From Escherichia coli (lineage in GTDB: Bacteria; Pseudomonadota; Gammaproteobacteria; Enterobacterales; Enterobacteriaceae): a DNA stretch of 64,000 bases. Position 1 is the first letter of the stretch. Every line of letters begins with the position of its first letter. Shown piece by piece: positions 30,178-33,150 of the stretch. Where the stretch lies: assembly GCF_044324875.1 (NCBI RefSeq), contig NZ_CP172185.1; one strand, written 5' to 3'. Under the pieces are notes generated by a model. It was not told the DNA's origin. It did not search any database and saw only the letters and a program-made list of their open reading frames with translations. The position numbers were made by a program, and so were the translations under genes.

Positions 30178-31431
30178 GTGAGCCGTACTACAACTGTTGA
30201 TGGCGCTCCGGCAAGCGACACTGACAAGCAAAGCATTTCTCAGCCAAATCAATTTATTAAACGCGGTACGCCGCAATTTATGCGCGTCACCCTGGCGCTG
30301 TTCTCTGCCGGACTGGCAACCTTCGCACTTCTCTATTGTGTGCAACCTATCCTTCCGGTGCTTTCGCAGGAGTTTGGCTTAACGCCCGCGAACAGTAGTA
30401 TTTCACTGTCCATTTCCACGGCGATGTTGGCTATCGGTTTGCTGTTTACTGGCCCGTTATCCGATGCCATTGGTCGCAAACCAGTGATGGTCACGGCGCT
30501 ACTGTTGGCCTCCATTTGTACGTTACTTTCGACAATGATGACCAGCTGGCACGGCATTTTGATTATGCGCGCCTTGATTGGGCTTTCGTTAAGTGGCGTA
30601 GCAGCTGTTGGCATGACTTATCTTAGCGAGGAAATCCACCCCAGTTTCGTGGCCTTTTCGATGGGGTTGTATATCAGCGGCAACTCAATTGGCGGCATGA
30701 GCGGACGCTTAATTAGCGGTGTCTTCACGGACTTTTTCAACTGGCGAATTGCGCTGGCGGCAATCGGTTGTTTCGCGCTGGCCTCGGCGTTAATGTTCTG
30801 GAAAATCCTCCCTGAATCACGCCATTTTCGCCCGACTTCGCTGCGACCTAAGACGTTGTTTATCAACTTTCGTCTGCACTGGCGTGACCGGGGATTACCG
30901 TTATTGTTCGCAGAAGGCTTTTTGCTGATGGGGTCGTTCGTCACGCTGTTTAATTACATCGGCTATCGGTTGATGCTCTCCCCCTGGCATGTCAGCCAGG
31001 CCGTGGTTGGCTTATTATCGCTGGCTTATTTGACCGGTACATGGAGCTCACCCAAAGCCGGAACCATGACCACCCGCTATGGGCGCGGTCCGGTGATGTT
31101 GTTTTCGACGGGGGTTATGCTGTTTGGTTTACTGATGACCTTATTTAGCTCGCTGTGGCTGATCTTTGCCGGAATGTTACTCTTCTCAGCCGGATTCTTC
31201 GCAGCCCACTCAGTAGCCAGCAGCTGGATCGGCCCCCGCGCAAAACGCGCTAAAGGCCAGGCCTCCTCGCTGTATCTGTTCAGTTACTATCTGGGGTCGA
31301 GTATTGCCGGGACGCTGGGTGGTGTTTTCTGGCATAACTATGGCTGGAACGGCGTCGGCGCATTTATTGCTCTGATGCTGGTCATTGCTCTGCTGGTCGG
31401 GACGCGTTTGCATCGTCGTCTGCACGCCTGA
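30178..31431 (+). CDS. ynfM: YnfM MFS transporter, 417 aa
   Basis: 12-TM MFS translation. Confidence 0.88.
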   Translation: MSRTTTVDGAPASDTDKQSISQPNQFIKRGTPQFMRVTLALFSAGLATFALLYCVQPILPVLSQEFGLTPANSSISLSISTAMLAIGLLFTGPLSDAIGRKPVMVTALLLASICTLLSTMMTSWHGILIMRALIGLSLSGVAAVGMTYLSEEIHPSFVAFSMGLYISGNSIGGMSGRLISGVFTDFFNWRIALAAIGCFALASALMFWKILPESRHFRPTSLRPKTLFINFRLHWRDRGLPLLFAEGFLLMGSFVTLFNYIGYRLMLSPWHVSQAVVGLLSLAYLTGTWSSPKAGTMTTRYGRGPVMLFSTGVMLFGLLMTLFSSLWLIFAGMLLFSAGFFAAHSVASSWIGPRAKRAKGQASSLYLFSYYLGSSIAGTLGGVFWHNYGWNGVGAFIALMLVIALLVGTRLHRRLHA

Positions 31432-31449
31432 AAAAATAAATATCCTCCG

Positions 31450-32160
31450 GCATAGCCGGAGGTTTTTCAAATGCGCCTATAAGGCTCTCTTACCAGCCGC
31501 GCCCTAACAGGCGCACACGATCTGACATTTGCATCCAACTTCGTTACTTACGGCCCGTAAACGGGCTGCCCGGATAGGGAATCGATAACTGCTCTCCCAT
31601 TTTATCCTCTTCAAGCTGGTGCTTTATGTAATCCTGTATCTTCGCCGTGTTCTTACCCACCGTATCGACGTAATACCCTCTGCACCAGAACTCCCTGTTC
31701 CTGTATTTGAATTTCAAATCACCAAACTGCTCGTAAAGCATCAGACTGCTTTTCCCTTTCAGATATCCCATAAAGCCTGATACGCTCATTTTGGGCGGGA
31801 TCTCCACAAGCATATGGATATGATCTGCACAGCATTCAGCTTCCAGAATCCGTACACTTTTCCACTCACACAGCTTTCTCAAAATACAGCCTATTGCTCT
31901 ACGCTTCTCTCTGTAGAACACCTGTCTTCGGTATTTTGGCGCAAATACTATGTGATATTTACAGTTCCATCGGGTGTGCGCTAAGCTCTTTTCGTTCCCC
32001 ATTGGGACCCCCTTTTGATTTCTTGTTTGACACTTGCAGTTGCCAGACCGCAAGGTGTTTTAACAAATCAAAAGGGGTTTTAATAACTGGCTCAAAGCTG
32101 AAAGCTTTCCGGAACCCCCAGCCTAGCTGGGGGTTTTCTGTGCACAATAAGTCCGGACTG
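31450..32160 (-). mobile_element. IS200-like element (IS200/IS605 family), about 0.7 kb; ends approximate
   Basis: Contains Y1 (HuH) transposase gene; upstream of its ATG is a stem-loop that includes the SD, and further upstream a perfect palindrome ggaacccccagcctagctgggggtt at ~32103-32128; no terminal inverted repeats expected for this family. Confidence 0.7.
31544..32002 (-). CDS. tnpA: IS200-family TnpA Y1 transposase, 152 aa
   Basis: Translation MGNEKSLAHTRWNCKYHIVFAPKYRRQVFY... with HuH motif (ADHIHMLVEIPP) and catalytic Tyr region. Confidence 0.9.
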   Translation of the reverse strand: MGNEKSLAHTRWNCKYHIVFAPKYRRQVFYREKRRAIGCILRKLCEWKSVRILEAECCADHIHMLVEIPPKMSVSGFMGYLKGKSSLMLYEQFGDLKFKYRNREFWCRGYYVDTVGKNTAKIQDYIKHQLEEDKMGEQLSIPYPGSPFTGRK

Positions 32161-32566
32161 CGGTAAATACCCATCCGGACTTATTGCCTGCTCAAACCAA
32201 CGTTAATAGCCATCCTAAAATAGACGAAGCGCCAGCCAATTCCCGCAGCGCATCTAGTGTCATCAGGATTATAAATACCCAAATAAACGGATTCATTTTG
32301 CTGTGTGTCATTTATTACTGATGCGCAGTTATTCTACCGCTTTGTAAGTAGTAAAATAGTTAACCCGATCAAGACTACTATTATTGGTAGCTAAATTTCC
32401 CTTAAGTCACAATACGTTATTATCAACGCTGTAATTTATTCAGCGTTTGTACATATCGTTACACGCTGAAACCAACCACTCACGGAAGTCTGCCATTCCC
32501 AGGGATATAGTTATTTCAACGGCCCCGCAGTGGGGTTAAATGAAAAAACAAATTGAGGGTATGACA

Positions 32567-32875
32567 ATGAAAAAAGTATTAGCTCTGGTTGTTGCCGCTG
32601 CTATGGGTCTGTCTTCTGCTGCCTTTGCTGCAGAGACTGCGACCACACCTGCTCCGACTGCGACGACCACCAAAGCAGCGCCGGCGAAAACCACACATCA
32701 TAAAAAACAGCATAAAGCAGCACCTGCCCAGAAAGCGCAGGCGGCTAAAAAGCATCATAAAAATGCCAAAGCTGAACAGAAAGCTCCTGAACAAAAAGCG
32801 CAGGCAGCGAAGAAACACGCCAAGAAACACAGCCATCAGCAACCGGCAAAACCTGCTGCACAACCCGCAGCGTAA
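32567..32875 (+). CDS. asr: Asr acid-shock periplasmic protein, 102 aa
   Basis: Signal peptide then low-complexity Ala/Lys/His/Gln-rich repeats. Confidence 0.9.
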
Positions 32876-32967
32876 GTTATCAATAGTAATGCTGGCGCGC
32901 CCCCTCGCGCCTGAAAATTACGGTGCTAAGCGGATAACGTTTAGCACCGCCTTTAGCGGAGGGTAGT

Positions 32968-33051
32968 ATGGTGGGCCGTTATCGCTTTGAGTTCATTCTT
33001 ATCATCCTTATTTTATGCGCACTGATTGCCGCCCGTTTTTATCTTTCCTGA
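32968..33051 (+). CDS. ydgU: YdgU 27-aa small membrane protein
   Basis: ATG at 32968 encodes MVGRYRFEFILIILILCALIAARFYLS with stop at 33049-33051; SD ggaggg upstream. Confidence 0.7.
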   Translation: MVGRYRFEFILIILILCALIAARFYLS

Positions 33052-33150
33052 TCGTAGTTATCTGATTTTACTCCCACTTTCATCCCGTCCCGTCTATAGT
33101 ATTTATGAGGGTTTGCTTTTAATAATCATAATTACCCACCAGAGTGTGAT

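Follow-up and report, generated by a model that had tools for sequence, protein, structure and literature searches.

In the 64-kb stretch of Escherichia coli DNA analysed here (the window), the interval from 31432, the base after the ynfM stop codon, to 32566, the base before the asr start codon, was assigned in full to an IS200-like element by the first-pass annotation. This raises the questions of what has been inserted between the two genes, where exactly it begins and ends, and whether it affects the regulation of asr. The interval does contain an element, but it equals the whole ynfM-asr spacer, of which the element occupies only 31435..32145; the remaining 421 bp (32146..32566) are native intergenic DNA, colinear with K-12. 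In K-12 MG1655, and likewise in most E. coli genomes, the spacer is uninterrupted and reads ...CACGCC TGA AAAATAAGTCCGGA..., and rejoining the window flanks in the alignment gives the K-12 empty site plus one extra A, with 711 bp in between. This alignment, together with the RefSeq annotation ("IS200/IS605-like element IS200C family transposase"), confirms the proposal that an IS200-type element interrupts native ynfM-asr sequence. The name IS200C used here is taken from the RefSeq/PGAP annotation of the identical protein and element. With the site empty in more than 5,400 genomes, it is very unlikely that the 711 bp are ancestral and that the "empty" site would represent a deletion. The accompanying statement that IS200 is absent from K-12 is upheld by the alignment at the ynfM-asr locus only; elsewhere in its genome, K-12 is not known to carry IS200.

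The first-pass annotation had also noted that terminal inverted repeats are absent, which is correct (the ends read GTGCAC... and ...TTATT, with subterminal hairpins at both), and had considered the exact ends uncertain for that reason, which no longer holds. Since AATAA is present at both junctions of the insertion in the window, alignment with the empty site alone leaves a 5-nt ambiguity, which was resolved with the help of copies inserted at different places. One and the same 711-bp unit, with identical ends, is found at 10 E. coli loci (ynfM-asr, rhtB-rhtC, glcA, emrB-luxS, carB, plaP-sbcB, nifJ, wzzB, a hypothetical gene/IS4 site and a plasmid site), beginning with GTGCACAGAAAA and finishing with ...GGAGGATATTTATT, and the constant ends recur in approximately 24 IS1541 copies of Yersinia pestis. 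With IS200C and IS1541 copies at approximately 35 other sites as the basis for comparison, the exact ends of IS200C are thus obtained without ISfinder, as a by-product of the analysis. Across the 10 E. coli and approximately 24 Y. pestis sites, the 5 nt ahead of the left end (LE) vary (TTATT, TTTTT, TTGTT, TTCTT and others), whereas the right end (RE) is constant, so that the target was not duplicated, in line with the peel-and-paste transposition of the IS200/IS605 family. The TTATT at both junctions was considered as a 5-bp target duplication and rejected on the same grounds: the terminal TTATT at 31435..31439 stays the same from site to site and is part of the element, unlike the target TTATT, which belongs to the host. 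Read on the minus strand, the empty site is CCGGACTTATT|TTTCAGG, with the element placed after TTATT, and precise removal of the element would restore the uninterrupted site CCTGAAAAATAAGTCC.

We are therefore highly confident that the spacer holds an intact IS200C at 31435..32145 on the minus strand, pasted 3' of TTATT in the tail of the terminator between ynfM and a small KPN_01571-family gene, without duplication. It is an ordinary copy of a well-known mobile element, since IS200C is the IS200-group element of E. coli within the IS200/IS605 family, and as such it represents no novel type of feature. Between emrB and luxS of strain MCJCHV-1 there is a 711-bp copy that is 100% identical, and 99.9% identical copies also exist. 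No further IS200 copies or LE palindromes were found within the 64-kb window. The features of the locus are collected in Table 1.

Table 1. Features of the ynfM-asr spacer, given as positions in the window.
Feature	Position	Strand	Basis or remark
ynfM stop codon	31429..31431	+	3 nt from RE end of the element
Complete IS200C element	31435..32145	-	LE nt 1 at 32145 (GTGCACAGAAAA...); RE last nt at 31435 (...GGAGGATATTTATT); empty-site alignment, copies at other loci
RE subterminal hairpin CCTCCGGC-TAT-GCCGGAGG, then ATATTTATT to the RE cleavage point	31444..31462	-	fold
tnpA, 152-aa Y1/HUH transposase	31544..32002	-	ORF, profile matches, catalytic motifs
Predicted art200 promoter	31958..31987	+	-35 TTTACA 31958..31963, 18-nt spacer, weak -10 TAAGCT 31982..31987
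Predicted art200 antisense sRNA, ~90 nt	31994..32083	+	homology only; complementary to tnpA 5'UTR and first three codons
SD-sequestering stem-loop	32009..32077 (IS nt 69-137)	-	fold; 3' arm pairs SD AAGGGGG
Rfam RF01405 (STnc490) match	32012..32135	-	146.4 bits, E=2.2e-31, gathering score 56, full 124-position model
LE perfect palindrome, 10-bp stem, 3-nt loop, AACCCCCAGC-TAG-GCTGGGGGTT	32113..32135	-	fold, uniqueness
Target pentanucleotide TTATT, host DNA, directly 5' of LE	32146..32150	-	empty-site alignment, copies at other loci
Host hairpin AATAAGTCCGGA...TCCGGACTTATT, native bidirectional terminator	32146..32185		folds: window z = -5.5, K-12 z = -4.1
Small ORF, 34 aa, KPN_01571 family ("transporter-adjacent" small protein)	32192..32296	-	NF033695, E=4.7e-19
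RstA box of the asr promoter TACATATCGTTACA	32450..32463	+	consensus PMC4117788; identical to K-12; 305 bp from IS end

The element is approximately 0.7 kb long and has tnpA as its sole gene, with no tnpB between the mapped ends. TnpA matches the Pfam Y1_Tnp profile over its full length (E=1.7e-37, with 120 of the 121 positions covered) and scores 145.9 bits with the NCBIfam equivalog transpos_IS200, for which the cutoff is 55 (E=6.7e-43), and it carries both the HUH motif (H61-I-H63) and the catalytic C-terminal tyrosine (Tyr125), in agreement with the Y1/HuH transposase gene first proposed for this reading frame. The nearest solved structures are those of the IS200-type transposases of Sulfolobus, IS608 and ISDra2 (E=1e-22 to 1e-16), with which the HUH motif aligns. 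The protein is identical to WP_000526113.1, the annotated product of other E. coli IS200C copies; many of these are 98-99.9% identical to the window copy and have the same ends, and nothing but its location sets the window copy apart from IS200C. An identity as a RAYT/REP protein was tried and rejected, the match to NF047646 reaching 31 bits against a cutoff of 80 (E=1.5e-7). RAYT, or TnpA-REP, is a distantly related Y1 HUH protein that also recognises extragenic hairpins; the window tnpA differs in belonging to a discrete mobile element, whose ends are defined, and in having no REPs on either side.

The structures at the left end had been described as a stem-loop that includes the Shine-Dalgarno (SD) sequence just 5' of the ATG and, further upstream, a perfect palindrome, and both are indeed present. 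The 156 nt 5' of the tnpA ATG have a minimum free energy (MFE) of -60.5 kcal/mol (z = -4.6, with 0 of 200 shuffles as good), and the fold consists of the perfect palindrome, a small hairpin and a long stem-loop that pairs the SD sequence AAGGGGG (approximately 32014..32008, 5 nt ahead of the ATG). The palindrome is found once in the window, with 0 occurrences expected by chance, and an Rfam scan of 30900..33100 gave nothing beyond STnc490. In the published work on IS200, the LE palindrome is a bidirectional terminator at nts 12-34, which corresponds to nts 11-33 in the numbering of this copy, and the SD stem-loop spans nts 69-138 of the Salmonella element, for which SD sequestration has been shown by experiment (PMC4513863). 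By analogy, the LE palindrome would block impinging transcription and the stem-loop in the 5'UTR would hide the tnpA ribosome-binding site. In single-stranded DNA, the LE hairpin is presumably the site bound by TnpA.

The same region may also encode the antisense RNA art200. Its published 5' ends, at IS200 nt 153/154 (PMC4513863), correspond to 31994/31993 in the window, in the complement of tnpA codon 3. The predicted terminator of art200 is the plus-strand complement of the SD stem-loop followed by TTTT, as judged from the fold. The published art200 promoter has a good -35 and an almost unrecognisable -10 (PMC4513863); a good -35 and a poor -10 are present at the corresponding place in the window, and the sequence appears compatible with expression of art200 opposite the tnpA 5'UTR. 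A generic sigma-70 scan of 31300..32700 returned no promoter, a blank that says nothing about promoters as weak as those of tnpA and art200, or about that of asr, which depends on an activator. In Salmonella, tnpA of IS200 is kept at a very low level by the LE terminator, SD sequestration, art200 pairing and Hfq (PMC4513863); since the full published regulatory kit of IS200 is present, tnpA expression would be expected to be very low, and the element almost silent and rarely mobile.

Such dormancy leads to the question of whether the copy is a dead relic, complete in structure yet no longer capable of movement or expression. In favour of such a reading, IS200 is notorious for its dormancy, with repression of the transposase acting at several levels (PMC4513863). 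Yet the ORF is full-length, the catalytic residues are in place, and both ends and all hairpins are intact, while the 100% identical copy sits at a different locus of another strain and the differing variants found at the one ynfM-asr site (see below) argue for continuing mobility in E. coli. We consider a dead relic improbable, and regard the element as intact.

At the right end, the subterminal hairpin reads CCTCCGGCATAGCCGGAGG on the plus strand and is followed by TTTTT, which gives it the shape of an intrinsic terminator, 12 nt after the ynfM stop codon. Folded as single-stranded DNA, the LE and RE hairpins have z scores of -3.5 and -4.3, respectively. Their stems are identical at 14 of 19 positions, and the 8-bp cores, read from the sequence, differ at five positions, one in the loop and four that together make two compensatory changes (C-G to T-A, A-T to G-C). 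Compensated stems of this kind are the pattern that would be expected for two binding sites of one structure-reading protein. One detail of the RE junction does not fit a perfectly precise insertion: the window has six A at 31431..31436, compared to five A in 10 of 10 empty sites. This extra A (TGAAAA|AATAA) is common to the window, MEW and AHB3. It could possibly stem from homopolymer slippage, or from a cut at the RE placed one T beyond the usual point, the flank of the donor having started with T.

The target itself is the terminator of the small KPN_01571-family gene, which is co-oriented with tnpA and convergent with ynfM. As a name for this small ORF, ydgU was considered and rejected, since annotation puts ydgU (samT) downstream of asr; beyond the size that it gives for the asr promoter fragment, the 2026 paper on SamT thus has no bearing on the insertion. 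The insertion has split the minus-strand T-tail of the host hairpin, changing UUAUUUUU to UUAUUGUG, and has left the stem intact. The small gene would thus retain the stem of its terminator but have a shortened U-tract, any read-through meeting the LE palindrome 10 nt further on, and ynfM would gain the RE hairpin plus T5 as a replacement terminator. The local consequences of the insertion are probably neutral.

It had further been suggested that the element could affect asr regulation, and here the anatomy speaks against the earlier expectation, which we correct for this strain. The insertion could in principle alter the response of asr to acid or low phosphate via displaced upstream DNA, outward transcription or nucleoid structure. 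The element does share an intergenic region with the asr promoter, the DNA upstream of 32146 has been shifted 711 bp further off, and art200 would run toward asr (inferred from PMC4513863). However, the end of the element is 421 bp from the asr ATG (the CDS starts at 32567), the RstA box and the -10-like TATAGT at 32506..32511 are unchanged, and the sequence from approximately 32330 to asr is identical to K-12. A fragment from -250 to +50 suffices for RstA-activated transcription of asr in vitro (PMC13425233), and the element lies beyond it. In addition, tnpA is transcribed away from asr, the small divergent gene stands between the element and asr, and outward transcripts from the interior of the element would run into three hairpins, i.e., the art200 terminator, the LE palindrome with its TTTT, and the host hairpin. 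Given the intact promoter, its distance, the direction of tnpA and the three intervening hairpins, an effect on asr would be highly improbable.

How common is the element, and how often has it entered this site? Some match to IS200C is present in 3,094 of 5,426 complete E. coli genomes, and 2,063 (approximately 38%) have a copy that covers at least 80% of the element, with a median of 2 and a maximum of 35 places per genome. By contrast, the ynfM-asr site is occupied in only 8 of the 5,426. The exact YnfM protein is extremely common, and the site is empty in 8 of the 8 places listed for it; over the locus, identity to complete E. coli genomes does not exceed 99.3%. A search with 20 kb of the locus was dominated by a prophage inserted in tqsA. 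For the same-site comparison, we examined seven of the 8 filled genomes, the other being a near-duplicate assembly, and found that the filled genomes carry differing alleles of the flanking genes.

One ancient insertion, common by descent to the window and the 8 other filled genomes, with the differences between them arising through mutation, conversion or recombination, would account for the position and orientation of the element, which are the same in all 9 sequences, and for the extra-A variant of the RE junction that three genomes have in common; it would also sit well with the report that the IS200 family transposes very rarely (PMC4513863). The divergence of the element, however, does not track that of its flanks. 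In Ec-2939, B19374 and 510016, the flanks differ by 3-4 nt in 6.4 kb and the elements by 4-11 nt in 711 bp, while between MEW and ST3 the flanks are approximately 1% different and the elements differ by 1 nt. Moreover, TnpA of the window has Cys39, as at other loci, whereas Ser39 is found in every one of the same-site copies that were examined from other genomes. The nearest relative with an empty site (99.1-99.3% identical) is also at the same distance from the window as is the closest of the filled genomes compared, and the target, a hairpin followed by TTATT, is of the kind of site that is preferred. The mismatch between element and flank divergence, together with the Cys39/Ser39 difference, favours repeated insertion over one ancient event plus gene conversion. 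We thus lean towards repeated insertion into the same terminator, which would make this site a hot spot, and consider a single ancient insertion unlikely. The copy in the window adds to those of an IS that is common, well characterised and nearly silent; it occupies a probably neutral position and is of use mainly as a marker of strain or lineage.

The closest characterised relatives place the element firmly in the IS200 group. The prototype, IS200 of Salmonella enterica, also has a single tnpA, and its LE palindrome, SD stem-loop and art200 start agree to within 1 nt; it is 707 bp long compared to 711 bp here, and the work on art200, Hfq and the 5'tnpA sRNA was done on the Salmonella element. 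IS1541 of Y. pestis (710 bp) has the same LE palindrome and the same RE hairpin and tail (CCTCCGGCTATGCCGGAGGATATTTATT), its TnpA is identical at 143 of 152 residues, and its copies likewise insert at the end of terminator T-tracts. The differences are one base in the first 10 nt of the LE (GTGCCCAGAA versus GTGCACAGAA), a far higher copy number in Y. pestis and the presence there of tandem dimers, some IS1541 copies lying head-to-tail, directly behind the RE of another copy. More distantly, IS608 (Helicobacter pylori) and ISDra2 (Deinococcus) belong to the same Y1 HUH fold family (matches to PDB 2a6m/2vjv and 2xm3), and they likewise have subterminal hairpins and insert 3' of a short specific sequence without duplication; unlike the window element, they carry tnpB, and their targets are TTAC and TTGAT as opposed to the T-rich TTNTT beside a hairpin.

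These latter two elements are the mechanistic paradigms of the IS200/IS605 family. On one strand, TnpA binds the hairpins of both ends; it cuts at the 5' side of the LE and at the 3' side of the RE, and the single-stranded circle that is released is pasted 3' of a target resembling the site cut at the LE. Reading of the cleavage sites in IS608 relies on a "guide" tetranucleotide located 5' of the foot of the hairpin (PMC3597680, PMC2806898, PMC5027513). By analogy with IS608 and ISDra2, the window IS200C would move by a strand-specific, single-strand "peel-and-paste" route via a circle. The LE linker, from the cleavage site to the hairpin, is approximately 10 nt here compared to 19 nt in IS608 (PMC3597680), and since it is so much shorter, details of the IS608 model may not transfer.

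A side observation from the comparison of copies concerns the choice of target. All 10 E. coli IS200C insertions compared lie at the end of the T-tract of an intrinsic terminator. We also scanned one genome per species for the LE palindrome, which gave 120 loci, many of them matches at contig ends, in Yersinia, Vibrio, Dickeya, Brenneria, Edwardsiella, Pluralibacter, Mailhella/Desulfovibrio, Oxalobacter and Enterococcus and in metagenome-assembled genomes (MAGs) of Bacillota, Clostridia, Ruminococcus and Saccharibacteria. A hairpin with a T-rich tail that ends exactly at the insertion point was present in 77 of 87 distinct LE flanks, compared to 0 of 85 control windows taken 300 nt further upstream, and the mean MFE was -19.1 kcal/mol in the flanks versus -8.7 kcal/mol in the controls (p = 3e-25). 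Among the 87 insertions, T occupies position -1 in 86 and position -2 in 85, and the 5-nt consensus ahead of the LE is T-T-N-T-T. The RE of the element is itself built in this way, its hairpin leading into 9 T-rich nt of which the last two are TT. Landing at the ends of terminator T-tracts, co-oriented with the upstream gene, is a second by-product of the analysis, and it would leave the copies tolerated and transcriptionally insulated.

The association with terminators may reflect a mechanistic preference or purifying selection on insertions elsewhere, both of which are compatible with it. We put forward only tentatively, and at somewhat less than even confidence, the idea that transposases of the IS200 group select terminators as such and that the ynfM-asr terminator is a recurrent hot spot, entered separately in several E. 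coli lineages, that of the window among them. The proposed target would consist of a GC-rich hairpin and, behind it, 5-9 T-rich nt with TT at their end, mimicking the RE (a hairpin followed by ATATTTATT), and the T-tract would pair with the invariant GAAAA 5' of the LE hairpin; such reading of TTNTT by an A-rich guide is speculation. If the preference is mechanistic and this proposal is true, it would extend the "guide sequence" model of target selection in IS608 to a structured target. We treat terminator targeting as a side observation of uncertain novelty and not as a discovery. As to the candidate guide, GAAAA is found just 5' of the C-run of the LE palindrome in every IS200-like element collected, the preceding 6-7 nt being variable, and the RE has AAAAA at the equivalent position.

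At the right end (RE) junction of the IS200C copy (31431-31436), the window, MEW and AHB3 have six A, i.e., one more than the five found in the other 5 filled genomes examined and in 10/10 empty sites examined. A perfectly precise insertion does not account for the extra A at this junction. Comparison of window 31435-32145 with the other E. coli copies at the identical ynfM-asr site (L002, L134-L139) gave differences of 0.1-2% between genomes, in a divergence pattern that is incongruent with that of the flanks. In addition, TnpA residue 39 is Cys39 in the window and Ser39 in all 7 of the other same-site copies examined. Together, the incongruence between IS and flanks and the Cys39 versus Ser39 difference suggest either recurrent insertion at the ynfM-asr terminator or gene conversion between copies.

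An IS200C copy between rhtB and rhtC (L003) has flanks similar to the ynfM-asr flanks (window 31391-31434 and 32146-32183), in that a stop codon is present, one side carries an A-run and the opposite side a hairpin. Because of this similarity, the BLAST alignment of L003 with the window runs for approximately 40 nt past the IS on both sides. The likeness seems to result from convergence between bidirectional-terminator sequences and not from co-transfer of flanking DNA. Unannotated IS200C fragments are also present on E. coli plasmids of approximately 92 kb (pO157-like; O157:H7-type and others; matches H28-H29 and H78-H81); these are approximately 140 bp long, comprise the RE end only (element nt 571-711) and have approximately 92% identity.

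IS200-group insertions lie at the end of intrinsic-terminator T-tracts, in the same orientation as the upstream gene, both in the window (32146-32185) and among the loci obtained by scanning for the left end (LE) palindrome (L006-L125). When 87 distinct LE flanks of diverse bacteria were examined, 77 showed a hairpin with a T-rich tail that stops at the insertion point; the corresponding figure for control windows was 0 of 85. Base by base, the consensus 5' of LE is T-T-N-T-T, which all E. coli IS200C sites fit (10/10). The target geometry is similar to the RE of the IS200-group element itself.

IS200-like elements of several phyla (L006-L099) share the 23-nt LE palindrome, AACCCCCAGC-TAG-GCTGGGGGTT, without any change; their hosts include Enterobacterales, Vibrio, Desulfovibrionaceae, Oxalobacter, Enterococcus, Clostridia and Saccharibacteria MAGs. 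Across these loci, the GAAAA directly 5' of the palindrome C-run is invariant, and the first 6-7 nt of the elements are variable. Many of the matches are located approximately 90-130 nt from contig ends; multicopy IS200-like elements therefore break assemblies.

In Yersinia pestis NCTC5923, IS1541 copies (L101, L102 and L104) occur in head-to-tail tandem, with the RE of one copy (...ATATTTATT) adjoining the LE of the next (GTGCCCAGAA). The arrangement looks like insertion after the RE of another copy, or like an integrated RE-LE junction.

The Rfam STnc490 match includes the LE palindrome, which is upstream of the published tnpA start (approximately nt 40). The match is tnpA-sense and takes in this palindrome, whereas STnc490/art200 as published is an antisense RNA covering roughly nt 64-153; the match is therefore a marker of homologous LE DNA, and not of the sRNA strand or boundaries.

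Features in and around the ynfM-asr region of the window
Feature	Coordinates	Strand	Remarks
Rfam STnc490 match	32012-32135	-	tnpA-sense strand
KPN_01571-family ORF	32192-32296	-	34 aa, hydrophobic; NCBIfam NF033695, 'transporter-adjacent'
tqsA	start ~35104	+	AI-2 transporter gene; broken after ~45 codons, ~35240 onward

The KPN_01571-family ORF is convergent to ynfM. Its annotated length varies among RefSeq genomes (23, 34 or 39 aa), and it is without annotation in K-12 MG1655.

The DNA interrupting tqsA is foreign and AT-rich, and is probably an integrated prophage: a 553-aa ORF overlaps a region annotated as 'terminase large subunit' in matching genomes, and further ORFs have a phage-like appearance. 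This foreign DNA explains the low identity (approximately 96%) and 94% coverage obtained when E. coli genomes were searched with a 20-kb query.
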